The notes under the pieces were generated by a model, which saw only the letters and a list, made by a program, of their open reading frames with translations, had not been told where the DNA came from and did not search any database. Shown piece after piece: positions 4,187-58,475 of a stretch of 64,000 nucleotides of DNA. Source of the DNA: Candidatus Marinacidobacterales bacterium. GTDB lineage: Bacteria; Acidobacteriota; Vicinamibacteria; Marinacidobacterales; SMYC01. The stretch is taken from assembly GCA_965237955.1 (NCBI GenBank), contig OZ250169.1, positions 5,597,888 through 5,661,887 on the forward strand, given 5' to 3'. A program made the position numbers and the translations under genes. Within the stretch, counting starts at the first letter, position 1. Each line of letters begins with the position of its first letter.

Positions 4187-4651
4187 AAAAGTTCCACTCT
4201 GTACTCTAGAGCTCGGTTGCGCTCGTCAGAACGCGCATAGAATTACCACAAAAGATTGAGCATAGAAAAGAGGAGCCCAACGGCGGGGTTCGTCTCGTCG
4301 ATTAGCTGGTTGGCGGTGTGAGCCGTAGCTCGGATTCTATCAACCGGTCCCCAAGTACCGTCGTTCCTAGAACTACTTGAGCAATCGCTGACTCGGTAGT
4401 ACCTTCCCCATGATGTATGGTCCTTTTCGGCCCCATGACGGGGGCGGGTTTGAGCTCAGGGAACCATGCATCTTTTTCTTTGACAGGAATCTTGAGACAT
4501 CATCCGGCCGAGTCATTAACCTCGATTCTCTCACTGAAGCTCGCTATTTCGCCCGTATGTTCGTCATGGTTCGGAGTGGAGAAAGTTCAATCAAGTCGGA
4601 GTTATTCAAAAAGGCTCAGGCCATAACCGAAAATAAGACAGGGAGGATTCA

Positions 4652-7762: not shown

Positions 7763-7790
7763 CCCTATCCTGAACGATCGGTCGCCGCGC

Positions 7791-8996
7791 CTATAGCAGC
7801 TCGAACTTCTGGAGGCGCCGCTGCATATGCACTTCGCCGGTGTAGATGTTGCCTTTGGAGTCCACGGCGAATTTGTGCAGCCAGTGAAACTCACCAGCGC
7901 CGCGGCCTCGGCGGCCGAAGGAGTCGAGAACTTCCATGTCGCTTCGTCGCAGGACCCAGACCAGCTGGCTGTTCCCATCGGCGACATAGAGAAAGGTCTG
8001 CTCCTCATCTGTTGAAAAATCAATATCCCAGACGGTTCCGTTCGCGGACCCACGCCGGGTCTCTGGCATGATGAAATGCTCTTCCACGTAGGTGCCATCC
8101 TTCTGGAAGATCTGGATACGGCTGTTACCACGATCCGCTACATACACGAGTCCGTCCTTGGAGATTAGAATCGCGTGCACAGAATCGGTGTAGTGCTCTG
8201 TGACGGGAGCGTCCAGATCGTACCGGAGTATCGGGGCTTCGTCTGGCACTTTGCCGTAAGCGGCCCAATGCCGCTTGTACTCCGCGGTCTCCGCATCGAA
8301 CACGATCACGCGCTTGTTCAAGTAGCCGTCGGCAACGAAGACCTCGTTCGTCTCGGGATCGACTGCGATGTCTGCCGGGTGTCCCAGGAACTCCGTGCTG
8401 TTGTTGCCACCGGTCCTGCCCGCCTTGCCGATCTGCATGAGGAACTTGCCGTCATTCGTGAATTTCAGCACGAAGTGATCGCGGCACCGCGGGTTGCCCT
8501 CCCCGTGTACTTTGTGGTCCAACAAGGTGACTGGGTCGCCGATGCCTTCGCCGCCGACCCAGACGTTGTCGTTGTGGTCGACGAAGATGCCGTGCTCGGT
8601 GCCGGGCCAATCGTAGCCCTCCCCCGGGCCACCCCAAGAGTCGAGAAGGTTGCCCTCCGCATCGAATACCAGGACCGGAGGAGCTGGCCTGCAGCACAGC
8701 GACATGGGCGGATCTTGCATCAAGCCGAGCTCGCTCCGAGTCAGGCTTCCGGGCCGCTGAAGGGCAAAGATTCGGTCCTGCGAGTCGACCGCTACCCCGG
8801 CTATTCGCCCTATGAGCCACTCGTCCGGCAGCGTCTTCGGCCAGAAAGGATCGACTTGGAACTGCGGGGTGCCGGTTCCATCGTTACTGGAAGTTGTTGC
8901 TTCCTCGGTCACCGATTTCGCCGGCTGGCTGCATCCGATTGCCGCCACGTATACGAGTACTGCTGCGGCTCGGTAAAACAATTGCGTGAGGTTCAT
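7791..8996 (-). CDS. NHL-repeat beta-propeller lipoprotein, peptidylglycine alpha-amidating lyase-like.
   Basis: Lipoprotein signal (AAIGCSQP). Repeated NHL-like blades are present (FVADGYLNKRVIVFD, VYVADRGNSRIQIF, LYVADGNSQLVWV, NIYTGEVHMQRRLQKF). Confidence 0.6.
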   Translation of the reverse strand: MNLTQLFYRAAAVLVYVAAIGCSQPAKSVTEEATTSSNDGTGTPQFQVDPFWPKTLPDEWLIGRIAGVAVDSQDRIFALQRPGSLTRSELGLMQDPPMSLCCRPAPPVLVFDAEGNLLDSWGGPGEGYDWPGTEHGIFVDHNDNVWVGGEGIGDPVTLLDHKVHGEGNPRCRDHFVLKFTNDGKFLMQIGKAGRTGGNNSTEFLGHPADIAVDPETNEVFVADGYLNKRVIVFDAETAEYKRHWAAYGKVPDEAPILRYDLDAPVTEHYTDSVHAILISKDGLVYVADRGNSRIQIFQKDGTYVEEHFIMPETRRGSANGTVWDIDFSTDEEQTFLYVADGNSQLVWVLRRSDMEVLDSFGRRGRGAGEFHWLHKFAVDSKGNIYTGEVHMQRRLQKFELL

Positions 8997-9133
8997 ACAA
9001 TAGGCTCCTAATTTGCGATCGACCTAGCGAACGCGGAGGGCATTTTATCCAGGTGCGAGGTGCGGCACAAGCGGGAAAAAGAGTGAGCTCGAAGCAGCCA
9101 AGAGCTCACAGCATCAAGACTTCCGTAGTCCAA

Positions 9134-9291
9134 GGGCCCGCGCAAGAATAACTACCCATTTTTGGACGCCGATCCATCCCGTCTGGCTGCGTTGCTCGTT
9201 GGTCATATATCTAGATATTATTCACTTCTCGCGCCTTGCCATACGGGCGCCTCGACGCCCAAAAATGGGCATTTATTCTTGCGCGGGACCC
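9134..9291. repeat. 158-bp symmetric imperfect palindrome with roughly 32-bp arms and a central ATATCTAGATAT core. It could be a MITE-like element or a regulatory hairpin.
   Basis: 9134-9165 (gggcccgcgcaagaataactacccatttttgg) is the near reverse complement of 9258-9291 (cccaaaaatgggcatttattcttgcgcgggaccc). The 12-bp perfect palindrome at 9207-9218 sits exactly on the symmetry centre. Confidence 0.5.
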
Positions 9292-9350
9292 TAAGACCTA
9301 CCCCTCGGGCCTGATCTCTCCGAAGCTCGGGACATCGAGGATAGACATCA

Positions 9351-10373
9351 TCAGGCCTCTTCGCCTGCCAGGTCGAGGTAGTGGTAGTAGTCCAAACCCT
9401 GCTTCTGCATCGCACGGCGGTAGTTGATTGCGAGCGCATCGAACTTCAGGTGCAGCTCGTCGGACAAATCGAACGGAACCTGCTCGGGACGTTGTGACTC
9501 AACGACTCGCTTGTCCTGGTCAAAGATGACCTTCTCGAAATCCTGCAACATGCTGTCGGGCTGGTCGAAATCGTAGTTTCGGCCGATGATGCAGTAGCCC
9601 CTGCACCGTTTCTCGCCGATCGGTTGGGAGGCGAAGAAGTAGACCATCCCTTGTGTGCCACCCCATCCCAGCCGTAGCGCGATTGTATAAGGCAGGTGAA
9701 GCTCATAGCGGCAATGTCGTTCCGGCTTTCCGACCTCTTCGTTGGCGAAGACGGGGAACTCAGTCGTGTTGGCCGCTTCGGCGCGGACCACCGCGTAGTG
9801 CAACACATGCCCGCGGGTCTCTACATCGTACTCGGGTACGAGCGGACGCTCCGGGTCGCCCAAGAGCCCCGGGTGGACCCAAGGGAAATGGCCGAAGTCG
9901 GTGAAATTCTCGACCTGCCGGGAGGCGTCGCTCTGCCAGTCGAACGGGCCGGTGAGAACGACTTTCCACTCGTCGTCTTCCAACTCGGGCAACTCGGGCA
10001 ACGGAAACATCGGGTCTCTGAGAGCAACCCAGATAAGCCCGTAGCGTTCCAAGGCCCGGTAGCAGGGAACCCGTGCCTTGGGCGGAATCCGGGCATCGGC
10101 TTGTTGCGGAATCTTGACGCATGCGCCCTCGGCGTCGTAGTGCCAGGCGTGGTACGCGCACACCAGACAGTCATCCTCGAGCGAGCCCAGGGAGAGAGCG
10201 GTGCCACGGTGGATACATAGATCCTGCATCACATGGGGCACACCGTCTGCTGTCCGCCACACGACGATGGCTTCGTCCAACAGCGTCGACCCGTAAGGGG
10301 CGTCCTGAGGTACTTCATGAGCGTACGCAACCGGATGCCAGCAGTGAAACAGTTTCTCGGAGAACTTGGACAT
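9351..10373 (-). CDS. Rieske [2Fe-2S] non-heme iron oxygenase of the PaO/Tic55/choline-monooxygenase-like family.
   Basis: Rieske motif CIHRGTAL...CAYHAWHY, plus the mononuclear-iron motif ENFTDFGHFPWVHPG (E/D-x3-D-x2-H-x4-H). Confidence 0.75.
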   Translation of the reverse strand: MSKFSEKLFHCWHPVAYAHEVPQDAPYGSTLLDEAIVVWRTADGVPHVMQDLCIHRGTALSLGSLEDDCLVCAYHAWHYDAEGACVKIPQQADARIPPKARVPCYRALERYGLIWVALRDPMFPLPELPELEDDEWKVVLTGPFDWQSDASRQVENFTDFGHFPWVHPGLLGDPERPLVPEYDVETRGHVLHYAVVRAEAANTTEFPVFANEEVGKPERHCRYELHLPYTIALRLGWGGTQGMVYFFASQPIGEKRCRGYCIIGRNYDFDQPDSMLQDFEKVIFDQDKRVVESQRPEQVPFDLSDELHLKFDALAINYRRAMQKQGLDYYHYLDLAGEEA

Positions 10374-10383
10374 CCTTCCCTAC

Positions 10384-11910
10384 CTAATGCTTGCGTTCAA
10401 TCTTGAAGGTGAAAGCATGCTCGCAAGGTTTTTTGTCCGGTGTTTTGATTGTGAGGCCGTCTTCGGTCATTTTCCATTCCAGTTCTTCATCAACACCAAG
10501 CATCTTTATGGATTTGATCTCTGATTCATATAATCCAAAATATTCGTCTTCCCCAGCCAGGTATTTGATTGTCACTTCATCGCTTGGCCAATCAAGACAG
10601 ATCGCATATATGGTCTTGTCCTTAACGGTAAATCTGATGTCCTGAGCCGTAAACTGGACTTTCTTCCTGTTCTTCTGAAATTCGTCGTAGTCCCCCACCC
10701 ATGAGCCTCTGGGCAGAGGCTCATGGGCAGGACCTTCTCCGTATTTTATCCAAGCCGTGGTACCGTAAATCGCTTCACCGTTTACCTTCAGCCACTCGCC
10801 TATCCCCAACAGACGTTTCTTAGCTTCTTCAGGGATTGTTCCGTCAGGTTTGGGACCGACGTTGAGTAAAAGAAATCCATTCTTGCTGACTCTATCCACC
10901 AGATTATCCACCAAGGTATTTACCGATTTGAAGCTTGCGTCTTTGGTGTAGGACCATGCGGCTGGGTCATCTACAGAGGTATCCGTCATCCACATATGAT
11001 GTGTCAGCTCAGGCATCATTCCTCCCGTGTCCTGGATACCCACGCCGGGAGGAAAATCATGGGTTTTGTACGTTACGACAACTTCCTTGCCGCGTTTTAC
11101 GGATTCGTTGTAGTAATAGGCCAGAAAGTTCTTTTGATAATCGTCCCTTATTCCATCCAGACCAAAGTCAAACCATATAAAGTCTGGGTCATAGTTGTCG
11201 ATAACTTCTACTATCTTCCCGTACCATTCATCTAAGAACTCCTTGCTGGGCTTTTCTCCTTCCTCGTGTATCTGGCCGTATAGTCCTGAATAGCGTGGAT
11301 CGGAAGCGTCAAGTCTCTCGTCCCATACCGGGAAGAAAGACCAGTTCAAGGCATGGTGGAATGCCGTTACAAACTTCATGTCGCGCTTTTTGATCGCTTT
11401 TTCTAACTCCCCGACGACATCTCTTTTCGGTCCCATCTTCGCAGCATTCCATTCTGAGTACTCGGTATCCCACATTGCGAAGCCATCGTGATGCTCTGCG
11501 ACTGGACCGGCGAATTTTGCGCCCGACTTTTCGAAAAGCTCTGCCCATTCGTCAGCATCGAACTTCTCCGCCTTAAACATAGGTATGAATTCCTTGTACC
11601 CGAATTCCGAGAGAGGTCCGTACGTTTCTACATGGTGTTTATGCTGTTTGGAATCTTCACGCGTATAAACAGCATGGGAATACCATGTACCATCGGGCCC
11701 CATAGCAGGTACCGAATAGATTCCCCAATGTGTATAAATTCCAAACTTGCCGTCTTTTAGCCACTGCGGGACTGGATAGCGTTTTAGAGATCTCCAGGTA
11801 GGATTATAGGATTCCTCGGCCATGGGGTCATTTTTACAACTGGTAAGCAAGCCTGTTGTCATTATCACTGCAGTCAATGTCGCCGCCAATCCAATTGACT
11901 TTTTTAACAT
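10384..11910 (-). CDS. Alpha-L-fucosidase of glycoside hydrolase family 29, a lipoprotein.
   Basis: Lipoprotein signal (LLTSCKND), then GKFGIYTHWGIYSVPAMG...WYSHAVY and the remaining GH29 catalytic-domain pattern. The gene is conspicuously AT-rich compared with its neighbours. Confidence 0.8.
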   Translation of the reverse strand: MLKKSIGLAATLTAVIMTTGLLTSCKNDPMAEESYNPTWRSLKRYPVPQWLKDGKFGIYTHWGIYSVPAMGPDGTWYSHAVYTREDSKQHKHHVETYGPLSEFGYKEFIPMFKAEKFDADEWAELFEKSGAKFAGPVAEHHDGFAMWDTEYSEWNAAKMGPKRDVVGELEKAIKKRDMKFVTAFHHALNWSFFPVWDERLDASDPRYSGLYGQIHEEGEKPSKEFLDEWYGKIVEVIDNYDPDFIWFDFGLDGIRDDYQKNFLAYYYNESVKRGKEVVVTYKTHDFPPGVGIQDTGGMMPELTHHMWMTDTSVDDPAAWSYTKDASFKSVNTLVDNLVDRVSKNGFLLLNVGPKPDGTIPEEAKKRLLGIGEWLKVNGEAIYGTTAWIKYGEGPAHEPLPRGSWVGDYDEFQKNRKKVQFTAQDIRFTVKDKTIYAICLDWPSDEVTIKYLAGEDEYFGLYESEIKSIKMLGVDEELEWKMTEDGLTIKTPDKKPCEHAFTFKIERKH

Positions 11911-12129
11911 TTCTTCCTCTTGTCCTCGTCTCGTTCCTGCGCGTTTCGATTCCTTCCTCCGGTTCGCTAAACCGCTTTTCGTTTTTCACTACGTGGAAGG
12001 ATACCCCGCCTTGCTCAGCTAGGCGAACCACAACTTCTGGCTATATCTTATGCGGCTGCATCGTCCAGCCTATGACGCGACGCGAGCACAGCTCGAGGAT
12101 GAACTTCCCTCGCTCGTCTAGAGCGGACG

Positions 12130-22293: not shown

Positions 22294-22803
22294 TCAATTG
22301 TCTAGGCACAACCATTTTTTGAGCTTCGCCATCTGTTCGGACGTCAGAGACTGGTCGTCCAGGATTTGCACGAGGTGTTCGCGATTGCGAGCGAGCGGTT
22401 TGTAGCCGCAGCCGTCGAAGAGCTCGGGGCTTGTTTGCTCGAGAAGCGGGCGGGGGTAGTCGCGGCACATACCCGGCGGTGACTCGTAGCTGTCACAACG
22501 TCTCGTGTCCACGTCGAAGTGGGTGCATTTGAAGATGAACGCCTTGTCCTCACGGCGCGCTTCGACGAGGTCGAAGCCATTGATCTTGGCATGCCACCAC
22601 AGGAAAACCTGGCGAATGAAAGGGAAATACCAAGTGAGCTTGCCGACTCGGATGCCGGGCTCTTCACAGCACTTCGCACAGCGGACGCATTCACCACCGA
22701 GATCGTAGCGGACATCGGCCTGAGCTCGGTGCAGCCACAACCGGGCGTAGTAGACGCCGAGGCTGATGCGCTTCACGCTCCGCAAAAACGGACCGTCTCT
22801 CAT
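22294..22803 (-). CDS. YkgJ/UPF0153-family cysteine-cluster (zinc/iron-chelating) protein.
   Basis: CVRCAKCCE motif plus the downstream CTHFD...C...C pattern typical of YkgJ. Confidence 0.7.
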   Translation of the reverse strand: MRDGPFLRSVKRISLGVYYARLWLHRAQADVRYDLGGECVRCAKCCEEPGIRVGKLTWYFPFIRQVFLWWHAKINGFDLVEARREDKAFIFKCTHFDVDTRRCDSYESPPGMCRDYPRPLLEQTSPELFDGCGYKPLARNREHLVQILDDQSLTSEQMAKLKKWLCLDN

Positions 22804-22821: not shown

Positions 22822-24591
22822 TCATCGAAGCAGCGTCGAGATCTCCTGGATGCGGCGCTCCAACGCTCGAGATTTGTCAGCGGCGCCGTAAAGCTCGCGC
22901 AGCTTTTCGGGGATGAACATGGGGTCCGTGCTCTCGCGGATGGCAACGAGTTGTTGAAGCTCTTTTTCGAGACCGTAGTCCGGTGTTCGAAAATGCTCCA
23001 GGGTCTCGCGAATGTGCTCGGCCGTCGGGGCATCGGCGCCTGCGATCGCGGCGCGTCGAACGCATTGGACGAGAAGGCTTTCGATGTCCGCACCCGAAAG
23101 CTCGGGGGGCAGGGGAGGAAGAGCTTGCTCGTCGATTCTGACGTCGTTCTTGCGCGCCATCGCCATGAACATTTCTCGACGGGCCGCTTCCGTTTCGGGC
23201 GGGAAGAGAGGAATGTGCACTTCGCACCGTCCCTGGCGCTTCAAGTCGACAGGGAGCAGATCCGGCCGGCAGGTGAGAAGCACCCACAGAATTTTTCCCC
23301 GGTAGCGCGTGTCGCTCATGAGCGACGAGATCATCGCGAACATGCGACTCGACGTGCCGCTGTCACCACCGGCGGACCGGCTTCCCAGCGCCGCGTCGGC
23401 CTCGTCGATGACGACCACGACCGGTCCGAGCGCTTTGATGACCGACAACACTTTTTGGAGATTGCCTTCCGAGCTTCCGACCCACTTGCTCCGCAGATTC
23501 TTGAAGACGATGGTCGGGATGCCGAGACTGCCGGCTAGACACATCGCGGTAAACGTCTTGCCGGTTCCGATCATACCGCAGAGCAAATAGCCCATCGGCA
23601 ACGCTTCCAGGCGTCCGTCTTTGAAAAGCCGAACGTCTTGCTCGAGCCGCTCCTTCACCGCGTCGGGCGCGACCACGGTATCGAGATCGTAGCTCGGCGC
23701 AACGAATTCGACGAGACCGAAACATTGTTTTTCGATGAGCTCTTTCTTGGCTTCGCGGAGTCTCCCGAGGTCGACGTGATTGCCTTTGGCGCCGGAGCTT
23801 CCGACAGCCTGGCCGAGTCCTATTAGCGTGAGTCCGTTGGCCTCACGGGCAACGTCTCGAGCAGCCTTCGCACCTTCGACGAGCGTGCGCGCGTAGTTTT
23901 CGCGCGTAGCCTCGTCCGGCAGATCGACCTCGACCTTGGAGATGAACGGGTTCTCGACGATCCGGCGGTTGACGTCGCCAAGCGCGTCGGCGACGAGGCA
24001 GAGCGTGACGTCCGCACCGCGGATGCCGGGATCGTTTGCCCAGTTGAGGACTTTGATGAGGGTCGCTCCGAGCTCGCCACTCAACATCGAGCCGTCGACC
24101 GCAGGCGTGATCGTCTCGATATAGCGGATGACGATGGCGAGGCTTTTGCGATTCCCGTTTTTGGGTGTGTCGACGAGCTTGTGAAGGATGTAGCGGTCGA
24201 GGAGCTCGAAAACGAGCTTCGGATCCTTGGCGCGCGAGTTGGCGTAGCTGGTCCCGCTGATGAGGTCGATGGCTTTGAGGGTCTTGTGAAAGTCTTCCTG
24301 CATCGCCTGTCGCCGGTCGCTGTCGCCGGGCGCGAGGAAGCGAACGCCGCTCCCACGGTCGTAGCTCAAGACGATTTCGCGCTGGCCGAAGAGCTGTGTC
24401 GCCAGGTAGTGCTCGAGAGATACAAACTCGTCCGCATCCCGCCGCCCGGGCCCGTTGGGCCCGGTGAGGACGACGGGGACGAGATCGTGGACGTTGCCGT
24501 GGAGGAGAAAGACGCTCGCCGCACCGCTGACATAGCTCAGAGCGAGCTCACGCGCCCATTCGGGAGCGCTACGGCCCAAAGGGTTATTCAC
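22822..24591 (-). CDS. Classical-clade AAA ATPase with a large N-terminal domain of unknown function (~350 aa).
   Basis: Walker A GMIGTGKT, Walker B VVVIDEADA, and an SRH-like region with arginine fingers (TCRPDLLPVDLKRQGRCEVHIP). The ATG at 24696 overlaps pspA, so the start is more likely the GTG near 24591. Confidence 0.7.
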   Translation of the reverse strand: MNNPLGRSAPEWARELALSYVSGAASVFLLHGNVHDLVPVVLTGPNGPGRRDADEFVSLEHYLATQLFGQREIVLSYDRGSGVRFLAPGDSDRRQAMQEDFHKTLKAIDLISGTSYANSRAKDPKLVFELLDRYILHKLVDTPKNGNRKSLAIVIRYIETITPAVDGSMLSGELGATLIKVLNWANDPGIRGADVTLCLVADALGDVNRRIVENPFISKVEVDLPDEATRENYARTLVEGAKAARDVAREANGLTLIGLGQAVGSSGAKGNHVDLGRLREAKKELIEKQCFGLVEFVAPSYDLDTVVAPDAVKERLEQDVRLFKDGRLEALPMGYLLCGMIGTGKTFTAMCLAGSLGIPTIVFKNLRSKWVGSSEGNLQKVLSVIKALGPVVVVIDEADAALGSRSAGGDSGTSSRMFAMISSLMSDTRYRGKILWVLLTCRPDLLPVDLKRQGRCEVHIPLFPPETEAARREMFMAMARKNDVRIDEQALPPLPPELSGADIESLLVQCVRRAAIAGADAPTAEHIRETLEHFRTPDYGLEKELQQLVAIRESTDPMFIPEKLRELYGAADKSRALERRIQEISTLLR

Positions 24592-25342
24592 TGGATTCGG
24601 ACGCGGCCTCTTTCTGGGGGCCGACGGTTTTCTCGGTCGCTTCCGACGAAGGCTCGGCGAGTCCTTGCTCGATCTTGAATTGAGCCAGGAGCTCACCGGC
24701 TGCGACTTGGTCCGCCGCCTGCTTTGCCTTGAGCGCGTCGATGCCCTGATCGCTCAAGTCCGACGCGACCTTGGACCGGGCTTTCGCTTTGTTGATCTGA
24801 TCGTCGACCCGGCTCATGATGGCGTCGATATCAGACGACACATCGAACGAGGTATTGAGGGCGCCTGCCGTCTCGGAAACTTCGGCGAGCGCTTTCTCCA
24901 TCTGGAGCGCCGCCTTCTTCTTCTCGAGGTCCTTCTTGCTGTTGCCGATTTCAGTGAGAGCCGCCTTCATCTTCAGAAGGTTGTTCTCGTAGTTCTCTTG
25001 GTGCTGGGCGAGCTGCTCGTTGTTGCTCTCGAGCCCGTCTTTGACTCGAGAAAGCTCCAGTGCGAGCTGGCCGGCCATCTCTTCCTGATTGGCCTTTAGA
25101 TGGTTCTTGATCTGTCCGGTGAGGCTCGAGATCCGTGAGGTCTCGCTTGCGACTTGTGCCTCCACTTTCAGAACCAGTGCCTGATAGGAGATGAGCCCCT
25201 GGCGAGCCTCTTTCAGGCGTTCGGTAGCCTGCTGGAGTTTCGCCTCAGCCAGGGGGATGACGTGCTTGTCCTCCATCTCGGTGACGGACTTGTTGAACAA
25301 GGCGTACCAGACTGCTTGGATGCGCGCGAAAAGTCCCATCAC
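24584..25342 (-). CDS. pspA: PspA/IM30 (Vipp1/LiaH) family protein of the ESCRT-III superfamily.
   Basis: MGLFARIQAVWYALFNK... N-terminus resembles PspA (MGIFSRFADIVNANINALL). The ~250-aa product is an all-helical coiled coil with a charged C-terminal tail. Confidence 0.65.
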   Translation of the reverse strand: MMGLFARIQAVWYALFNKSVTEMEDKHVIPLAEAKLQQATERLKEARQGLISYQALVLKVEAQVASETSRISSLTGQIKNHLKANQEEMAGQLALELSRVKDGLESNNEQLAQHQENYENNLLKMKAALTEIGNSKKDLEKKKAALQMEKALAEVSETAGALNTSFDVSSDIDAIMSRVDDQINKAKARSKVASDLSDQGIDALKAKQAADQVAAGELLAQFKIEQGLAEPSSEATEKTVGPQKEAASESSE

Positions 25343-25404
25343 TGACTCCCTTCGATGATAGCTAGTGGAAGAATCCTAACAGCAATACTTTTCAACGGAA
25401 AGGA

Positions 25405-25547
25405 GGAAAGACGCGAAGGCGCAAAGGGGATCGATGGCTCGTCCGGATCCCGATGCGTGATCCTTCTTTGCGTCTTTGCGTCTTAGCGCCTTTGCGTTAA
25501 AAAGCATCATGTCGCGGATTCCTCTTGCGCCTTGGCGCCTTTGCGTT
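25405..25547. repeat. Intergenic cluster of GCGCCTTTGCGTT / CTTTGCGT repeats, one of which is inverted.
   Basis: Contains gaaggcgcaaagg (inverse orientation), a tandem ctttgcgt x2, then agcgcctttgcgttaaaaa and ggcgcctttgcgttaaaaaa. Confidence 0.5.
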
Positions 25548-25555
25548 AAAAAACA

Positions 25556-28500
25556 TCACGTAGTGCTCTCGTCGGCCTCGGCCTCGGCTTCTTCAGTGTC
25601 GGTCATGTTCGATAGCGCCGAGACGTTGATCTTTTCGAGGGCCTCGACGAGCTCGGGGATGTCGTCGACGTATTCCAGTTTGCTGATGAGTGCCTTGATG
25701 TTCGGATCGTCGACGCCACGGTAGCCGCGGAAGCGATGGGCCATGAAGCGCATCAGCGGGATCAGCGTACCCTCGATGAGGTAGGACTCGCGCGAAATGA
25801 GCTCGTAATCCGCCGGCGGCGCCTCGGGTTCGGCGTCGGGCGCGACTCGCTGCTTTTGACCGTTCCCGAACGCCTCGAGGAGCTCGTGCAGCTTTTCGGT
25901 GTACGGTGAGAGGTCAAGCTGGACGTCTACCTGCGCTGGTTTGGCCGCGGCGGAAAACGCGGCCAGGTCGGGATCGACGGACAGTGCGGCTGGGCGCGAG
26001 CCAGCTTTCTCTATAGCGCGGTCGATGCTCTCGCCGATGCCTTCGAGGTGCTCGGACACCATGCTGAGCTGACCGGTGAGGCGTGTTGCCGGGTCATCCT
26101 CGCCACTGCCCATGCGTTGGATGCGGACGTAGCCCTTCTTGATCTCCTCCCACCGTGCGCGCTGAGCGTCGCTCAACCGTCCCCGCATCTCGCCGAGCTT
26201 GAGGAGATTCTCCTCCGCACCGGTGGTGAGCGTCTGTGATTCACCGAGATAGTGGTCGTCGATGAGGTTCTCGAGCTCTTCGTCGTTCATGGCCGGCACG
26301 ATCTTCTCCGTCAGCTTGTTCATATTGCGGTAGCTCCCCTGGAGACGGAACGGGGGCTCGGTGCGATAGGCATCTTCTTGCGAGGCGGAGCGGATGTATT
26401 GCTGGTTGACGGCGAGCAGGGTCTGCTGCACCTTCAAGAGCTTTTTCAGCACCGACTGGATCTCGCCGATCTCCACCGCCGAGTAGCCGTGCTCGAGCTG
26501 GTCGGATTGAATCGGCTCTCCCTGAGCCATGCGCACGAGCATGACGATATCGTTCTGCTCTCGTGTCGTCAGCGGTGCGAGCACGTTGTTCGACGTCAGT
26601 GAGTTCTCGATGTAGGAGAGCGCGAACAGATCGCCTTTGCCTTCGAGAATGTCGCCGAGGTTATAGGTGTCGGCGCGGTTGGCGAGCATGTCCGGGATCT
26701 GGAATTTCTCGCCTGACTCGGTGTACGGGTTTCCCGCCATACACACGATGAACTTCTTGCCTCGCAGATCGTAAGTACGGGTGCGTCCCTTCCATACACC
26801 TTCCACTTTACGCTGAGCGTCGCACAAAGAGATGAACTTCTGGAGGAACTCGGGATGCGTGTGCTGGATGTCGTCGATGTAGAGCAGAACGTTGTTGCCC
26901 ATCTCGAAGGCGAGATTGAGCTTTATGATCTCCTGACGCGCGGTCGCGTTCCCTGCCTCCGCGGGATCGAGTGACGTGACCGAGTGGCCGAGCGCGGGCC
27001 CGTTGATTTTCATGAACACTAGGCCGAGGCGGTTGGCCAAATACTCCATCAGCGTCGTCTTGCCGTAGCCCGGTGGCGAGATGAGAAGGAGCATGCCCAT
27101 CAAATCGGTCCGCTTGTCTGCGCCGAGCGCTCCCATTTGCTTGGCGAGGTTGTCGCCGATGAGAGGCAGGTAGACGTCGTTGATGAGGTGGTTGCGCACG
27201 AACGACGACATGACTTTGGGCTTGTATTCGTCGAGGCGCAGGGCGTCGCGCTCTCGTTCGAGGACGGCGTGCCGCGCTTTCTGGAAGTCACGAAAGCCGG
27301 GAACGAGGCGGTAGCGGAAGTGGCCGAGGCGCGACAAGAACTCGTCGAGGTGGAGCTCCATGCGGCCTTGTTGAATCCGTGGATGCTGGCCTAGCAGTCC
27401 TTCGATACTCAATTTCGCCTGCGCGCTCGATGTCTCCCGGCTCACCTTGCCTTCGAACAAGATCGCGACCACGGCTTCTTGAGCGGCGCGCGCCGTTTGA
27501 TTGGTCTTCTCGAGAAAAGCCGTCACCCACGCGAGGGCAAGATCGTAAGCGCGCACCGGTGATTCTCGAAGCCCACGAAGATCCTGCTCAAAGTCACGCT
27601 CGGCGCTGGATTCGCGCAAATGCTTCTCGAACGCCTTCTTGAGCTCGTCGGCTTCCGCGCTCAAAACGAACTTCTGCGGCTCACGCGCGATCTCTTCGAG
27701 GAGATAGGCACCCGCGCGGCGCGCGGCGCGCTCGGGCACGTGGATGCCGAGCTCGGCCAGATGCTCGGCGATCGCGGTGTTGAGCTCGGAGCCGAGATCG
27801 GTGAGCGCGTCACTTGTTTCGAAGTGCGTCCGCAGGCGATGCAAGCTCTTCGCCTGGTTTTCCCACGTCGTCCGCTTCTTGCGGTCCGGGTAAAGAGCCC
27901 AGAACACGGTGGCGAGGGCTCGCGCTGTGGGCGTGAACGCAGGAGATCGGCGCTCTCGTGCATGCCGAGAGTTTTCTGGAGGATGAGCGTGGCGTCGGCA
28001 TCGTGGAGGCCGCGCTCGTAGCCTTCGTCGTAGCGCTCGGCCGCGTAGTCCCGCACGATGGCGAGAAGCGCGTTGTCCACTCGGGTGGCCTCGTGAAGCT
28101 TGGCCAGTGACAGTCCGGCGTCGCCGATCTCGGCGTCTTCGAGAATGCAATAGGCGAGGTACTCCGAACGATAGACGTCGTCGGTTTCCGAGACCAGTTC
28201 TTGCGCCCAGAAGTCACGCGTTTTGGCGAACTCCTCGTCGTCGATCTGCTCATAGAAACCGGTGCCACTCAGGTGGAACGCCATACCGTCTTCGCGCGGC
28301 ACCATCGTGAGCTCCAACGGCTGGGTGTTGACGCTGAAGCGATGGCGTCCGAGCTTGATGACGTTAGCGCCGTCTTCGTAGATTTCTCGCCGATCGCGCA
28401 GACCTTGCGCGGCGTCTTCTTTGGCGGCTTTGAGCCGGCCATCGAGCTCGTCGGCATGCACCGAGTTGCCGAGCTCTCTCAGGTTGGCCGCGGTGTTTCG

Positions 28501-30936
28501 TAGCTTGGCGACCATGGGGTCCGAAGCGAAGTATGCGTTCAAAGCGTCGGAGCTTTCGAACTTCTCGGCGCGTCTGGTGACGCTCCCGAGGATGCGATCC
28601 GCCGCATGCATCAAGTTCTGCGCTCGTCGTTGGCGCCGGTCGACGAGCGATTGCTTCTTGGAGCTGAACGCTTCGTAGATCTCTTCGCGCTTGGTGGTGA
28701 GCTCGGTCACGAACTCGTCGAACTCGGAAAAGCGGGTTTCGAGGTCTTCGAGCTGCAGCATGAGCTTCGAGAGTTGCTCGTCGCACTTCTCCGGCGAGTC
28801 GGAAAGCGCCAGCGCGCTGGTGACGCTTTGGCTCAGCAGCTGAAACTGGACGCCGAACTCGGCCACGCCTTCTTTGCCGAGAAGCTCTTTGCGCCGGTTG
28901 GCGATGAGCGCCCGCACGCGGTTGAGGCTTCCCATGATCTCGGAGATGTTGCTGAGAATCTGGGTACGGACGGTCGCATCGTCGATCTCGAGCGAGCCGA
29001 TGACGTCGGTAAGGAGGTCCAGGCCGTCACTGAGCTCCTGCAACGACGCCTGGTGGTCGTCCGCCTCGGTGACTTTCGAGAGTCCGGCGACGCCTTCTTC
29101 CAGCTCCGCCGCGCGTTGGTGGTAGGGAAGCAGTGCTTCGGCTTTCAACAGGAAGTCGACCGCCCGCTCGCTCACCGTATCGAAGCGCTCGATAATCTCC
29201 GCTTCGAGGGCGTCGATGTGCGTCAGGTCGACGTAGCGCACTTCACGGAGCGTGATCAGGTGGCCCCGGGCCGAGCGCAGGCTGGCCAGACAGGCGACGA
29301 ACTGATCGATCGACGTCCACGAATCGGGATAGATCGTCCGGAAGAGCTCCTGGATTTTCTCGGCGGCTTCTGCGACTGCCTTTTTCGCGTCAGCACGGAG
29401 CGCCTCGACTTTCTCGAACTCGTCGATGATGCTCTCGGCGGTCTCATGAACTTCGTCGAGGACTTCGCGCAAGTTCCCGATTTCGGCCTCGTCGAGCCAG
29501 TAGTAGCTGTCGATGACGCGCGCGGTAGCGGCGACGAGGTCCTCGTACTTCTGGCGCGTCGGCTGCTGCTCGTCGACCATGCGGCGGATGCTGAGGCAAT
29601 CGGAGACGCCGCGAACGAGCTCGGCGTTGCCGACTTTTTCGAGAAACGATCCCGTGGGCGGCAGCGCTTTCACGTGCTCGTCGCTCATGAACGGCGTGCG
29701 CCACAGCTGCATGTTGTGCACCCGCTTGGGCTCGTCGGTGTCGGCGCGGAAGATGATGACGGTGCCGTCAGGGAAGAGACTGAACCCGTGACAGGTGAGG
29801 GGATTATCCACTTCCTTCCGGATCATGTTGTACGGGAGCAGAATCGTGCGCCCCGCCTCGCGCTCGTGGAACGCGTACAGCACGTCCTCGCCGTTGGGGG
29901 AGCGGATGCGGCGCAAGTACTCCATCCCTTGGATCTCGCGTTCGAAAGATTTGGTGTGTCCGCTCTGCAGGTAATAACCGCCCGGGAAAATGATGCCGTG
30001 GTCTTCGGGAAGCTGGACACAGGCCTGACCGATCGCATCGATGCGATCGACTTGTTGGGTCCGGGTGTTGAACACGAGATATCGATACTCGGTCTCGCGG
30101 TAGGGGAGGACCTTGAGCAAGATTAGCGTGCCCACTGTTGCGTAGTGGACTTGGGCGTCGTCGAGCGCCTGGTCGGCATCGAGCACCGGCTCGCGATAAA
30201 TGCCCTGGCCATCCTCGGTGTTGTTCTCGACTTTAATTGTCAGGTCGCCGCCGAGCGTCTCGACGAAGACTTCGTCGAGAATGTTGACGTGGGGGTAGTG
30301 GCCCTGGATGTGGTCCTCGCGCACCGTCGCAGTCCATTCGAAATCGTGGGTCGGAGGGAAGACGTGGTCACGCTCGCCGCGGTTGTCGATGTAGCTGACG
30401 GCGCCGTCGGGTGCTACCGCCCAGCGAAACACGCGCACGTCGTCAATCTTCTCGCCGATTTGGAACACCGCGAGCAGCTTTTCGCCGACGCTTCGCAGCT
30501 GGAGGAGCTTGGTTTGCTCATAATAACGATAGAGCTCCTGGAACTCCTCGATGAACTTGGGGTCGGAGAGGAAGTAGCCGGGCGCATCCTTCGAAACACT
30601 TCGCAACGAGATACCCTCGTCGGTCTTCTCGAACGTATGCAGGCTGAAGACGTCTTCGATGTGCGTCTGGCGCTTGAGGCCGATGAAGACGTTGTAGCCG
30701 AACAGAAGGTAGTTGCCGACCTCCTTGATGTCCCGGGGAACACAGTTGTTCTCGGTACGGATCCGTTCGTTCCCGAGAACGGCGAGATCGGTGCCGCCGA
30801 AAAGCTCGAGGCGTTTCTTGTTGAGCGTCTCCGCCCGCTCGGCCAGGACTTTCCCGTGGCCGAGAAGGCGGTCGCGAATGATCTCGTAAGTGCCGCGCTC
30901 GATCTCGACCTTTTGGACGTCGGTGCTGGTGCTCAT
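25556..30936 (-). CDS. Giant (~1,790 aa) protein: N-terminal beta-rich domain, long coiled-coil region, an AAA_5/MoxR-type P-loop ATPase domain and a helical C-terminal domain. Its reading frame is interrupted by an apparent frameshift near 27920-27940.
   Basis: ORF 27661..30936 is protein-like up to ~GMHESADLL and then degenerates into Arg/Ser-rich off-frame text. ORF 25556..28150 becomes protein-like from ~ALATVFWALYPDRKK. The downstream part carries Walker A LLISPPGYGKTTL, Walker B NVLLYIDDIQ, and sensor-1/Arg-finger FIVCMAGNPYTESGEKFQIPDMLANRAD, matching MoxR/AAA_5. Confidence 0.6.
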
Positions 30937-34599: not shown

Positions 34600-35880
34600 A
34601 TGCGCATCGGCGAGAACGCTAGAATCTTTTTTTCCGAAAGAGAAAAGAGCGTTCCCGCGATGCGCGTTACTACGTTAGTCAACAAGCTCATCGGATTGCA
34701 AGGCCTGTGGGTCCGAGGTTTCCACTTCCAGGCGGACAAAGCCAGAGTGGTGGTGGATGTAGTACCACGGAGGAGGAAGCCTCTGTGCGGGATTTGCGGA
34801 CGAAAGGTCCGCAAGAACAAAGATCGCTACAATCGCTACTGGCGGCACTTGGACCTGTTCGGAGTCCGGACCTATCTTCGCTACTCGATCCGACGAGTGG
34901 TATGTCGGCGGTGTGGAGTGGTCAGAGAAAAGGTGCCTTGGGCCGACAAGGGAAGCCGCTTTACCAAAAGCTTCGAACAAGAGGTAGCGTGGCTGGCACA
35001 GAGGACGGACGTCAGCGCCGTAGCGAACTATTTCCGAGTGACGTGGCGTTCGGTGCGACGGATCATCCAGCGAGTGGTTGCCGAGCAGCGGGATGAGCGG
35101 CGCGAGCTCGATGGATTGCGGGTGATTGGGATGGACGAGATCAGCTACCGCAAACGCCACAAGTACTTAACAGTGGTAATAGACCATCTCAGCGGCCGGG
35201 TCGTCTGGGCGGGAAAGGAGCGCAAGGCCAAGACGCTGCTGCGGTTTTTCCGCAAGCTCGGACCACAAAGAGCCGCGGAGCTCGAAGCGGTCAGCATGGA
35301 CATGTGGGAGCCGTACATAACTGTCGTCGGCAAAAAGGCTCCTCAGGCACGGGTGATCTTTGACCGCTTCCACATCGTCAAGCATCTGAACGAGGCCGTG
35401 GATAAGACCCGGCGCGAGCTGGTGCGCGAGCTCAAAGGGACTGCCCGGCGCAACCTCAAGAACACCAAGTTTCCCCTTCTCAAGGCCAAACACAACCGCA
35501 GCGCGAAAGACAAACGGGTGCTCCGCGAGCAGGTGCGAGCTAATCGTCGCCTCTACCGCGCCATGCTTCTGCGCGACGACTTCATGGACCTCTACACCTA
35601 CAAAACCGAGACATGGGCCAAGAAGTTTCTCCGAGGATGGCTGCGGCGCGCTATGAGCTCGAGGATAGAGCCCGTCAAACGCGCGGCGAAGATGATCCGC
35701 AGCCACTTCGATGGCGTCATCGCGTGGGTCACGTGGAGACTCAGCAACGGCCGACTCGAAGGAATGAACAACAAAATCCGGCTGCTGAGCCACCGCAGCT
35801 TTGGACTCCACTCTGCCGAAGCTCTCATCAGTCTCGTCTACCTAAACTGTGGCGGTCTCACCCTCGAGAGGATCCACTGA
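34600..35880 (+). CDS. ISL3-family transposase.
   Basis: The full-length (~420 aa) sequence matches the ISL3/IS204/IS1001/IS1096/IS1165 transposase family (zinc-finger-like CGICGRK...CRRCG N-terminus, DDE region with IGMDEIS... and SNGRLEGMNNKIR). The start is probably at MRVTTLV (34660). Confidence 0.8.
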   Translation: MRIGENARIFFSEREKSVPAMRVTTLVNKLIGLQGLWVRGFHFQADKARVVVDVVPRRRKPLCGICGRKVRKNKDRYNRYWRHLDLFGVRTYLRYSIRRVVCRRCGVVREKVPWADKGSRFTKSFEQEVAWLAQRTDVSAVANYFRVTWRSVRRIIQRVVAEQRDERRELDGLRVIGMDEISYRKRHKYLTVVIDHLSGRVVWAGKERKAKTLLRFFRKLGPQRAAELEAVSMDMWEPYITVVGKKAPQARVIFDRFHIVKHLNEAVDKTRRELVRELKGTARRNLKNTKFPLLKAKHNRSAKDKRVLREQVRANRRLYRAMLLRDDFMDLYTYKTETWAKKFLRGWLRRAMSSRIEPVKRAAKMIRSHFDGVIAWVTWRLSNGRLEGMNNKIRLLSHRSFGLHSAEALISLVYLNCGGLTLERIH

Positions 35881-55233: not shown

Positions 55234-55695
55234 CTACGGCGCAGCGCCGATCAGTCGAGCATTGTGAATCGCGGCATAGCTGTACGCTGCCATGAGCGAG
55301 ATGCGTAGCAGAAGTGCAGTCTTGGTCTTTCCCGCGCTCTGCAACTTTTCCGTTGCGTAATAGACGGCCATCGGGCCGACGACGTGGGTTGCAATCCGAA
55401 GCCCTCGGTGCGAGGCTGCCGGGTTTCCTTCGGCGAAGCCTTGGGAGAGTCCGTGTTCGGTCGTGATGAGGTCGGCGGCGGAGGCGGCGAACATTCCCAC
55501 GCCGGACACTCGCAGCGCGGGCGAGCTGTCGGATTCGCCGAGATAGTCTCGCTCCGGTGTGAGTTGATATCGAGCGAGCTCGCTCTCCGTGGGCTCGATG
55601 GTGCGGGTCTGCTCTTCGTCACCGTCGTCGCCTGGTTCGGCATTGCTTGCGAGCGTCAAAGACAGCGCCAGCGCAGAAAAGGTTTGTACCAGCAT
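55234..55695 (-). CDS. Hypothetical secreted protein.
   Basis: Signal peptide (LVQTFSALALSLTLASNA). No family recognised. Confidence 0.35.
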   Translation of the reverse strand: MLVQTFSALALSLTLASNAEPGDDGDEEQTRTIEPTESELARYQLTPERDYLGESDSSPALRVSGVGMFAASAADLITTEHGLSQGFAEGNPAASHRGLRIATHVVGPMAVYYATEKLQSAGKTKTALLLRISLMAAYSYAAIHNARLIGAAP

Positions 55696-55879
55696 GCGAC
55701 CTCCGGCGTGGGACCGAAGTGGAATGGTTTGTTCGGTCGGTTTGCCGGAGGAACTGCAAAGATGATACCGGGACGGTGCGTTTGCGCTAAGCGCAGGGAT
55801 GGCCGCTGTTTACACGGCGCCGGGTGGGCTTTTTGGGCCCGGGCGGCGTAGGGGTCGGCCTACAGTCCGCGGGAAAACA

Positions 55880-56323
55880 CTACGCTTCGATATCGTCGAG
55901 GACTTCGTCCGGGTGGCGGGCAGCATCGACGTCCGGGTACGCCTGCCGCACGGTTCCGTCCGTGCCGATCCAATAGCTGATGCGCTTCGCGTACTGGGCG
56001 TTCTCGGCTTCGCATGCGCCATAGGCCATCCCGACCGAGCGCGACGTGTCGCAAAGAAGAGGGAAGTTGAAGTCGAATTTCTCCGCGAACGCGCGGTTGT
56101 CGTCGACGGTATCGAAGCTGATCCCGAGGATGTGAACGTTCTTGTCGGCGTATAGCTGAATCTTGTCGCGGAACCCGCAACCTTCGGACGTTCATCCGGG
56201 GGTGTCGGCCTTGGGATAGAACCACAAGACGACGTTTTGTCCCTCGTAGTCGGAAAGTCGAACGGTATTGCCGGAGTGGTCTTGCACCTCGAACGGGGGA
56301 GCGGCTTGTCCCACTTCAATCAT
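55880..56323 (-). CDS. bcp: Selenocysteine-containing Bcp/PrxQ-type peroxiredoxin, with an in-frame TGA at the peroxidatic-Cys position.
   Basis: Translated through the TGA at 56192-56194, the product reads MIEVGQAAPPFEVQDHSGNTVRLSDYEGQNVVLWFYPKADTPG-U-TSEGCGFRDKIQLYADKNVHILGISFDTVDDNRAFAEKFDFNFPLLCDTSRSVGMAYGACEAENAQYAKRISYWIGTDGTVRQAYPDVDAARHPDEVLDDIEA. This matches Bcp (FYPKAMTPGCTVQACGLRD) with Sec replacing the peroxidatic Cys. The frame is unchanged across the TGA. Confidence 0.75.
56165..56182 (-). promoter_or_regulatory. bSECIS-like stem-loop 9 nt downstream of the UGA codon.
   Basis: mRNA UGA-ACGUCCGAA-GGUUGCGGGUUCCGCGAC has a 7-bp stem (GUUGCGG / CCGCGAC) and a GUU loop. It begins with GGUUGC, as does the fdhF minimal SECIS (GGUUGCAGGUCUGCACC). 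Confidence 0.5.
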
Positions 56324-56336
56324 TCTCGATTCCTCA

Positions 56337-57143
56337 CTAGTGGTTGGAAGCGATGGTTTCGCTTCGTTTCTGGAAATCGTTCCAAACGATCTGCTGTCGC
56401 ACATGGATGGAGCGAAACAACATGCGAGCTTTAATGTAAAAGTCGAAACGCTCCGGCAGCCAAACGTCGTCCGGCATGGGATGACGTTGGAACATGCCCG
56501 ACATCTTGGACACCGAGCCCATCATCCCCCACCAAAACCTGATTTTTTCCCGCAGCTCGAACTCGATGCGTGCGATCTCGAAGCTCTCGGTGTCGATCCA
56601 GATGTGTCCCACGGCTTTGTTGAGGGCGCGGTCGACGGTTCTCTTGACCGGGAGCTTGCCGGGTTTTGGCTCGAACCAAAGGACGTAGCATTCGCGTCCG
56701 CCGAGTGGTCGTACGTCGACGCGTTCGAGGTCGTATCGTGACAGGAGCTCTTCGTCGAAGGCGACGCGGTCATCCGCGTCGTTGTGCTTCGCTTCGCCCT
56801 TGGCGAGCTTCTTGCGAAACTTCTCCTCGCGCTTGCGTTCTCTTTTTATCTCCTTGTCGGTGAGCTCACGCCCGTCTTTCTCGACGAGTCGCTCGTAGGC
56901 GACACCTTCGATGTGGTCGCTGCGATAAAGGTGCTCTTCGACCTCTTTGACCTCTCCCTGTTTGTCGAGCTTTTCGGTGACGCTCACGAGTTCGTAGTCG
57001 TACTTGACCTCGTTGCCCGCGTCCTCGTGCTGCTTTTGGACTTCGATGGCTTTTTGGACAATGTCCTCGGCGCTCTCGGGCTCAGCCGCTGCCGTTTGGA
57101 CGGCCACGGCCAGGACAATCGGGCACACCCCAATAGCACGCAT
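56337..57143 (-). CDS. Hypothetical secreted (periplasmic) protein.
   Basis: Signal peptide (VLAVAVQTAAAEP). Rich in charged residues. It ends 13 nt upstream of the bcp start. No family assigned. Confidence 0.5.
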   Translation of the reverse strand: MRAIGVCPIVLAVAVQTAAAEPESAEDIVQKAIEVQKQHEDAGNEVKYDYELVSVTEKLDKQGEVKEVEEHLYRSDHIEGVAYERLVEKDGRELTDKEIKRERKREEKFRKKLAKGEAKHNDADDRVAFDEELLSRYDLERVDVRPLGGRECYVLWFEPKPGKLPVKRTVDRALNKAVGHIWIDTESFEIARIEFELREKIRFWWGMMGSVSKMSGMFQRHPMPDDVWLPERFDFYIKARMLFRSIHVRQQIVWNDFQKRSETIASNH

Positions 57144-57218
57144 CGATGCCCGAATTATAGCGTGCCGACGCTTGATACTAAGCTCGGCACTCGACCAGAG
57201 AGATTCTCGTGCGGACTT

Positions 57219-58475
57219 CTACGTCATTATTGCCTTGACACCCGCGATCGCTCGGTCGACGTGCTCCATGGTGTTGTACACGTGAGGGCAAAGTCTGAGC
57301 CCGCCCGTGCGAGCGCCGGCGATCCCGTGCTCCTGGTAGAGCTGATTCATGACCCCGCGGGTACGGCCTCGCTCTCCTTCGACTACGGTGATGCAAACAC
57401 CACCGGAGAGCTCCGGTGACTGAGGCGTTACCAGCGATAAGCCGGCATTGGCAATCCCGGCTTTCAGAGCGGTCGCGAGCTCCGTCACGCGTGCTTCGGC
57501 GCGCGCAGCTCCGATCGAGTTGTGGAAGTTGACCGTTGTTCCCACCGCGGCGAGGCACGCGTCATCTCTCTGTCCGAATGATTCGAATTTGCGCGCGCCC
57601 TTCGGGTCGGGATCGACGTCATCGCCCCAGCCCGGCGCCACGATGTTGGGCCAAATGCGAGGGATGTTGTCGGTCTTGACGTAGAGGAGGCCGGCCTCCT
57701 TGGGTCCCATGAACCACTTGTGGGCCGACCCGGTGTACGAGTCGCAACCCATTTCGCGGAGATTGACATCGAGAGCACCCCAGCTTTGCGCGCCATCCAC
57801 GTGGACGTAGATGCCGCGCGCCTGTGCGGCTTCGACGAGGTCTTTCGCCGGCAACTTGATGCCACTAACGTTCGACACGTGCGTGATCGACAACACTTTG
57901 GTCTTGTCGGTGAACGCGGACGTAAACGTGTCGAAGAGCTCTTGAGCGCTACCGGGACGCTTGGGCGTGGAGACTCGTTTGATCACCAGGCCGTATCGTG
58001 CGGCGCGGACGTCCCACGCGACGTTGTTGGTCGGATGATTCTGGTCCCACAACAAGACTTCGTCGCCCTCTTCGAGCGATAGGCCGTTGTTGATTATGTT
58101 GTTGGCCTCGCTCGTGTTGCGCACCAGAGCGATCTCGTCGGAGCTGACGCCCATCTGTTTGGCGACTTTGTTGCGGGACGCTTCGCGCAGTTGATTGAAC
58201 TTCGCGCGATTCTGGGAGCTGCAATCGCGATCGATGTCGGCGGTGAGCTCACTCACACGGTCGGAGACTGCGCGCGGCGACGGGCACAGGTTCGCGGCGT
58301 TCATGGGGACTTTCTCTTCAGTGAACGAGAATTGCGCTCGGACGAGCTGCCAGTACGCTTCGCCATCGGCGGGCGTCTCGGCAAGACTCTCGGTAGCGTG
58401 GGCGGTCTCGAACGCGGCCGGCAACAACGCGGCACCAGCAGCGATTTCCTTCAGGAACGAACGACGCGAGTTCAT
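57219..58475 (-). CDS. Class V aminotransferase-fold PLP enzyme (isopenicillin-N-epimerase / cysteine-desulfurase-like) with a Tat signal peptide.
   Basis: Twin-arginine motif RRSFLKEIAAGAALL at the N-terminus. PLP-Lys region SGSAHKWFMGPKEAG and the class V fold pattern are present. Confidence 0.7.
   Translation of the reverse strand: MNSRRSFLKEIAAGAALLPAAFETAHATESLAETPADGEAYWQLVRAQFSFTEEKVPMNAANLCPSPRAVSDRVSELTADIDRDCSSQNRAKFNQLREASRNKVAKQMGVSSDEIALVRNTSEANNIINNGLSLEEGDEVLLWDQNHPTNNVAWDVRAARYGLVIKRVSTPKRPGSAQELFDTFTSAFTDKTKVLSITHVSNVSGIKLPAKDLVEAAQARGIYVHVDGAQSWGALDVNLREMGCDSYTGSAHKWFMGPKEAGLLYVKTDNIPRIWPNIVAPGWGDDVDPDPKGARKFESFGQRDDACLAAVGTTVNFHNSIGAARAEARVTELATALKAGIANAGLSLVTPQSPELSGGVCITVVEGERGRTRGVMNQLYQEHGIAGARTGGLRLCPHVYNTMEHVDRAIAGVKAIMT

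Follow-up and report, generated by a model that had tools for sequence, protein, structure and literature searches.

A PrxQ/Bcp-type peroxiredoxin gene with a predicted selenocysteine codon at the peroxidatic position in a Candidatus Marinacidobacterales bacterium

Peroxiredoxins (Prx) with selenocysteine (Sec) in a TxxU motif, assigned to COG1225 (Bcp) and PF00578 and exemplified by WP_011365628.1, are a listed selenoprotein family, and reviews of 2022 and 2026 describe the longer motif PxxxTxxU (PMC9312934, PMC13188914). Zhang 2006 counted 12 members of Prx (T/SxxU/C) and five events of cysteine (Cys) to Sec replacement; for the Acidobacteria the same survey gives three selenoprotein families with four selenoproteins (PMC1794560). 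PrxU of Eubacterium acidaminophilum is an experimentally shown Sec-peroxiredoxin (Sohling 2001, as cited in the reviews). The Prx-like thiol:disulfide oxidoreductases (UxxC/UxxU) and the UGC-containing Prx-like proteins (PF00578) belong to the same Pfam clan and are selenoproteins too, with Sec in a CxxC-like or UGC motif and not at the peroxidatic TxxU position. In this study, we analysed a stretch of 64,000 nucleotides (nt) from a Candidatus Marinacidobacterales bacterium (contig OZ250169.1), hereafter the window. On its minus strand lies a peroxiredoxin gene of the PrxQ/Bcp type (55880..56323) with one in-frame TGA. It is very probable that this gene encodes a thioredoxin-dependent PrxQ/Bcp peroxiredoxin with selenocysteine (U44) as the peroxidatic residue.

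The frame 56323..55880 (minus strand) comprises 147 codons, from the ATG at 56323-56321 to the stop TAG at 55882-55880, and translation, Pfam, PDB and an alignment of 22 homologues identify it as a complete PrxQ/Bcp-type gene. Its single internal TGA, the predicted selenocysteine codon (56192..56194, minus strand), is codon 44 and stands at the peroxidatic position of P37-x-x-x-T41-x-x-U44, here P37-K-A-D-T41-P-G-U44. The product around it reads ...VVLWFYPKADTPG-[TGA]-TSEGCGFRDK.... A first interpretation of this DNA, made without database searches (the sequence-only reading), had described an open reading frame split at this TGA and unbroken across it, with FYPKADTPG before and TSEGCGFRD after the codon, and the translation of the 147-codon frame bears this out. 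All protein comparisons were made with Cys substituted for the in-frame stop. The Pfam profile AhpC-TSA (PF00578) matches with E 1e-34 and 119.5 bits (cut-off 26) over profile positions 1-123 of 124, and solved Bcp structures align over the full length (best 3drn, E 3e-23), so that the proposed match to Bcp across the whole length holds. Best among the NCBIfam models are PrxQ and Bcp, and the top PDB matches are Bcp chains. The equivalog cut-offs are missed, with 110.9 versus 140 bits for NF006960 (E. coli Bcp) and 112.5 versus 260 bits for NF053650 (Deinococcus PrxQ). Judged by these scores, the protein is a member of the broad PrxQ/Bcp subfamily and not an equivalog of either curated model.

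Compared with Cys-type PrxQ/Bcp proteins (NF006960, NF053650; 3drn, 5enu, 2ywn), the predicted protein has the same fold and length and shares the TPG-x-T active site, the conserved Arg (R114) and a resolving Cys that comes five residues past the peroxidatic position (CP+5). The difference lies at the peroxidatic position itself, where they have Cys and the window protein a predicted Sec. In the 22 aligned close homologues (57-71% identity) the column of the TGA is always Cys, and among the 120 best database homologues it holds Cys in 113, Trp in 6 and Leu in 1, in agreement with the earlier statement that the TGA replaces the peroxidatic Cys. R114, T41 and P37 are invariant in the homologue alignment. 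The resolving Cys, which the sequence-only reading had also placed five residues on, is Cys49 (codon 56177..56179, minus strand); its codon is part of the 5' arm in the hairpin described below, and its column is Cys in 110 of the 120 database homologues and nearly invariant across the 22-homologue alignment.

With PrxU the window protein has in common Sec as the peroxidatic residue and thioredoxin dependence, which for the window protein are predictions. PrxU belongs to another Prx subfamily: the window protein reaches 47.3 bits against the PrxU model NF040737 (cut-off 270), and that model has a length of 233 whereas the window protein has 147 amino acids (aa). It also falls far below the cut-offs of NF041054 and NF040769. 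The likeness to the listed Sec-Prx family is closer, comprising the PF00578 domain, Sec at the peroxidatic position of PxxxTxxU and a selenocysteine insertion sequence (SECIS) directly 3' of the UGA. The window protein comes from an uncultured, Acidobacteriota-like soil organism and is only about 55-78% identical to the other Sec forms found in this study, but shows no difference in kind. The enzyme type is already known; the window gene adds one member to the Sec-Prx family, and the current understanding of selenoproteins is unchanged by it.

A TGA in this place could also be a recent nonsense mutation, making the gene a pseudogene, or stand for a TGC or TGT that was misread in base-calling or assembly. 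A single substitution turns TGC into TGA, the metagenome contig that serves as source has, by its name, about 11x, and the closest Cys-type orthologue (P0001, locus L240; 71% identity) is syntenic. We therefore weighed this explanation against other genomes and metagenomes. A scan of one genome per species with the DNA pattern Y-P-K-[AD]-x-T-P-G-TGA-T gave at least 119 loci with TGA in many phyla, where by our own estimate about 2 chance matches are expected. They occur in Acidobacteriota, Binatia, Acidimicrobiia, Myxococcota and other Deltaproteobacteria, Planctomycetota, Alphaproteobacteria, Eremiobacterota, the cultured Effusibacillus and others. Among the genome loci listed, at least 113 stay open for 90-114 residues past the TGA and encode the remainder of PrxQ. 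The column holds Cys or TGA in nearly all homologues, as the sequence-only reading had anticipated. An accidental stop on one given codon of 147 is unlikely, and the TGA recurs in hundreds of independent sequences.

For metagenomes, the exact motif YPKADTPG-x-T-x-EGCGFRD was required, and TGA, TGC or TGT was permitted at the codon in question. The matches listed comprise 115 loci with TGA versus 5 with TGY (120 loci, L120-L239), a ratio that is not an abundance estimate, many of the listed hits being near-duplicate Rokubacteria-like genes (compare L029). The contigs are mostly JGI 'Ga' records. The earlier description of Sec peroxiredoxins as known but rare stands in its first half only: the family is listed, and at least 119 genome loci and at least 115 metagenome loci with TGA do not fit with rarity.

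L153, the closest relative among the metagenome loci listed, shares the TGA and is 78% identical. In the part that follows this codon, the window gene and L153 differ by a nonsynonymous divergence (dN) of 0.135 and a synonymous divergence (dS) of 1.16 (dN/dS ~0.12), which indicates strong purifying selection and means that the sequence after the 'stop' has been kept coding while silent sites are nearly saturated. L153, L051, L033, L131, L154, L155 and L229, all of the TGA type, are syntenic with the window locus by three markers whose proteins are 60-85% identical, a class-V aminotransferase, a TonB-dependent receptor and a 713-aa gene. Since two of these loci, L051 and L033, belong to metagenome-assembled genomes of Acidobacteriota, the window very probably stems from this phylum. 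In a rough neighbour-joining tree, the window gene falls in a clade that is all TGA save for one nested Cys lineage. A similar mixture of Sec types and Cys-type homologues has been described for the Sec-Prx family (PMC1794560). The same TGA in the nearest relative and in the whole syntenic clade, from independent assemblies, together with an intact and selected frame after it, leaves a recent mutation or a sequencing error very improbable.

Under a reassigned genetic code (table 4 or 25), TGA would be a sense codon, and an ordinary protein would result in which residue 44 is Trp or Gly. Some public pipelines do put Trp at the codon in homologues. In the window, TGA terminates 11 of the 30 well-supported (Pfam-supported) genes, so the code is taken to be standard; moreover, the G+C content is about 60%, neither Trp nor Gly would function at the catalytic position, and the other window genes showed no conserved columns in which TGA encodes Trp or Gly. 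We give this explanation practically no credence. TGA in orthologues, selection after the TGA and TGA stops elsewhere argue together against an error, a recent pseudogene and a reassigned code. On this comparative evidence, UGA-44 is shown to be translated through.

Directly after the TGA lies a predicted SECIS hairpin (56165..56181, minus strand) with a 7-bp stem, GUUGCGG/CCGCGAC, and the loop GUU. GGUUGC begins 9 nt past the UGA and opens this hairpin, which occupies nt 14-30 (numbered from the U of UGA), has its loop G-U at nt 21-22 and is built from the codons of G48-C49-G50-F51-R52-D53. The G+C-rich hairpin of the sequence-only reading, said to start from GGUUGC 9 nt downstream, is accordingly found at 56181..56165. 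The E. coli fdhF SECIS contains GGTTGCAGGTCTGCACC, which 5419 of 5426 E. coli genomes have in their fdhF gene; this confirms that GGUUGC is common to both elements. Both are short G+C-rich hairpins right after the UGA with a 5' arm from GGUUGC and G-U in a small loop. They differ in that the window stem has 7 bp without a bulged U and a GUU triloop where fdhF has GGUC, and in that codons for the active-site helix make up the window stem.

A hairpin lying on the conserved GCGFRD could follow from the amino acids and G+C-rich codon usage. Codons were therefore compared with the amino acids held fixed, in 107 non-identical TGA-type genes with GCGFRD. The hairpin codon GGT is used in 101 of these 107 genes, compared with 8% for the same amino acid elsewhere in the same genes; the corresponding values are 106 and 80% for TGC, 103 and 19% for GGG, 107 and 93% for TTC, 101 and 49% for CGC, and 102 and 81% for GAC. 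The adjoining Thr and Glu codons vary freely (ACG 69, ACC 37; GAG 72, GAA 33). The full 18-mer GGTTGCGGGTTCCGCGAC is found in 101 of 107 Sec-type genes, but of 11 Cys-type genes that encode the same residues only 2 have it (Fisher p 2.8e-8). It is also found in 19 of 25 Sec clusters (<70% protein identity). The window gene itself has all six hairpin-favouring codons, for which codon usage gives a chance of about 0.005; this is a further point against a recent mutation or a base-calling error at codon 44. Synonymous sites that are frozen in TGA-type but not in Cys-type genes are the signature of a SECIS element, and this codon comparison shows the hairpin to be under RNA-level selection in TGA-type genes. 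The frozen synonymous sites of codons 48-53 also offer a simple sequence test for the SECIS of the Sec-PrxQ family.

Covariation points in the same direction. The helix nt 14-20/24-30 is 96% paired, with changes on both sides at 5 of 7 pairs, in 40 distinct sequences, and none of 500 shuffles matches this; the 40 sequences were preselected for the helix, and the result counts as supporting evidence only. One compensatory change is UGC/CGC to UCC/CGG, where Ser replaces Cys49. Sec-PrxQ lineages without Cys49 have other stems in the same place around a conserved CGUGAY loop, such as GGAUUC-CGUGAUC-GAAUCC, GGGCCUG-CGUGAC-CAGGCCC and GGGGCUC-CGUGAUC-GAGCCCC. In all hairpin classes, the small loop at the apex contains a G-U, at a distance of 21-27 nt from the U of UGA (fdhF 23-24). 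This placement agrees with the bacterial SECIS consensus known from E. coli fdhF and the bSECISearch literature.

As a side observation, the resolving Cys at CP+5 is kept in just 29 of 114 Sec-type genes among the genome loci L001-L119, the others having S, R, Q, K or N instead. The contrast between these 29 of 114 and the 110 of 120 database homologues is a lead only, the two sets having been sampled differently.

Translation through UGA-44 does not by itself require selenium. A near-cognate tRNA might insert Trp or Cys, or the Sec machinery might insert Cys, and the hairpin would then merely stimulate read-through. In favour of such decoding, no Sec machinery was seen in the 64-kb window, and public gene calls give Trp at the codon in 6 of the 120 homologues. 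A peroxiredoxin with Trp at the peroxidatic position would be dead, which conflicts with the purifying selection on the gene. The Trp calls concern the same genes as the TGA loci (P0014 resembles L217 and L223) and therefore look like translation-table artefacts. Finally, a TGA at the catalytic Cys column with a directly adjoining constrained hairpin is the standard bacterial Sec signature, and the family is a listed selenoprotein family. Read-through without Sec is accordingly regarded as improbable, and we infer selenium incorporation at U44. The account given in the sequence-only reading, a PrxQ/Bcp selenoprotein with Sec for the peroxidatic Cys and a SECIS hairpin, fits the conservation of the TGA, the purifying selection, the standard code and the frozen codons.

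Following the SelA/B/C/D paradigm of fdhF, SelB with Sec-tRNA(Sec) would bind the hairpin loop and deliver Sec at UGA-44, so that the ribosome at this codon, as in E. coli fdhF, would insert Sec rather than terminate. By analogy with PrxQ/Bcp enzymology, the selenolate of U44 would then attack the peroxide and be converted to a selenenic acid. With Cys49 this would form an intramolecular selenenylsulfide, which thioredoxin would reduce, regenerating the enzyme, as expected from the PrxQ/Bcp family.

Several observations weigh against the selenoprotein interpretation. Concerning the hairpin, its folding energy is not significant versus shuffles for a G+C-rich sequence (z -0.38 for 71 nt, -0.59 for 40 nt) and was rejected as evidence; the true fdhF SECIS reaches -1.29. 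The description of the hairpin as SECIS-like is supported by the frozen synonymous codons and the covariation, though the energy z is weak. No Rfam match was obtained, either for the window at gathering scores or for 55850-56350 at E up to 10; short bacterial SECIS elements yielded no Rfam match. The loop G-U at nt 21-22 is 2 nt nearer to the UGA than that of fdhF (23-24). Many of the Sec sequences are mutually related, with the 18-mer still present in 19 of 25 clusters at 70% identity, and the preselection of the covariation set has been noted above. Concerning the machinery, a Pfam scan of the roughly 40 open reading frames of the 64-kb window revealed no selA, selB or selD domain, and ARAGORN and Rfam found no tRNA-Sec in it, ARAGORN finding no tRNA whatever. 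No tRNA-Sec was found by ARAGORN in 60 related loci either. The call of a Sec peroxiredoxin predicts that the source organism decodes Sec, and we infer that selA, selB, selC and selD lie elsewhere in its genome.

Nor was a second selenoprotein gene recognised in the 64-kb window by TGA-joined frames, GC3 (G+C content at third codon positions) or codon log-odds. The list of TGA-joined frames holds 167 candidates and is uninformative in a G+C-rich genome, the GC3 filter lost even the peroxiredoxin gene, and codon log-odds ranked the TGA of the peroxiredoxin 7th, behind antisense artefacts and a pair of real genes at 22822-22824. In this pair (minus strand), an AAA gene (22822-24696) and a CxxCxxCC-domain gene (22294-22803) share one frame, with a TGA and 18 nt between them. 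This TGA was considered as a Sec site and judged a coincidence.

Genome and soil metagenome collections appear to contain many Sec-type PrxQ genes. TPGWT stands at the Sec position in 6 of the 120 best database homologues (P0009, P0014, P0058, P0097, P0105 and P0119). P0014 is near-identical to the TGA loci L217 and L223, and its Trp apparently comes from TGA; public gene calls thus appear to translate the Sec-position TGA as Trp. Truncation keeps other Sec forms out of sight in the protein database. Gene callers thus seem to hide Sec-PrxQ in two ways, by cutting the gene short or by putting Trp. For annotation, the window gene should be recorded as a single selenoprotein of 147 aa, with 56194..56192 entered as a translation exception, and not as two fragments or a pseudogene.

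The closest Cys-type orthologue, L240 (P0001, gene 3001-3441), is 71% identical and syntenic and has TGC at codon 44. Both L240 and L241 (P0005) are Cys-type genes that still have the full hairpin 18-mer GGTTGCGGGTTCCGCGAC. In the rough neighbour-joining tree, L240 nests within the TGA clade. Its position and codons suggest a recent reversion from Sec to Cys with a fossil SECIS. This would oppose the mostly Cys-to-Sec trend reported for Prx (PMC1794560).

A broader proposal, which we put forward tentatively and consider rather doubtful, is that Sec and not Cys is the usual state of this PrxQ clade in soil bacteria (Acidobacteriota and Rokubacteria-like lineages). As a possible part of it, the SECIS might be an almost invariant 18-nt element, GGUUGCGGGUUCCGCGAC, that different phyla share and that is placed in codons for the active-site helix. 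With similar reserve, the Cys genes that have the 18-mer (P0001/L240 and L241) might then all be recent Sec-to-Cys reversions. If Sec is indeed the usual state, selenium-dependent peroxide defence in aerobic soils would be far commoner than protein databases show.

Regarding the gene neighbourhood, a Shine-Dalgarno-like GAGGA (56331..56335, minus strand) lies 7 nt upstream of the peroxiredoxin ATG. The upstream gene (56337-57143, minus strand), which encodes 268 aa without a Pfam match and lies between the aminotransferase and peroxiredoxin genes, ends 13 nt ahead of this ATG, and a search of 55600-57400 revealed neither a sigma-70-like promoter nor an intrinsic terminator. The short spacing and the lack of such motifs in this region suggest that the peroxiredoxin is co-transcribed with the 268-aa gene. 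The latter is present in the window, L033 and L174 and absent in L153, L051 and L240, where the aminotransferase and peroxiredoxin genes are about 150-300 nt apart.

The class-V aminotransferase (57219..58475, minus strand; 418 aa) matches Pfam Aminotran_5 with E 3e-42 and has a twin-arginine-like N-terminus (MNSRRSFLKEIAAGAALLPAAF). It neighbours the peroxiredoxin in the TGA-type loci L153, L051, L033, L131, L154, L155 and L229 and in the Cys-type locus L240. Class-V aminotransferases belong to the superfamily of cysteine desulfurases and selenocysteine lyases. From its synteny, we take the aminotransferase as a conserved neighbour that provides genomic context only.

Elsewhere in the window, a cluster of large ATPase genes lies on the same strand (22822-30936, minus strand). 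In order, it encodes a DUF3686 'ATPase involved in DNA repair' with DUF7902 (1091 aa), an AAA protein, a PspA/IM30-like protein and a second AAA protein (624 aa); the first AAA gene is an 864-aa open reading frame that overlaps the DUF3686 gene by about 490 nt in another frame. An intact transposase gene of the ISL3 family is located at 34600-35880 on the plus strand (DDE_Tnp_ISL3, E 1e-70). The G+C content is 52-54% at positions 4001-12000 of the window and about 60% elsewhere, and the alpha-L-fucosidase gene at 10384-11910 has a GC3 of 0.51 versus 0.71-0.81 in six other genes measured. By its base composition, the segment 4001-12000 may have been acquired horizontally.

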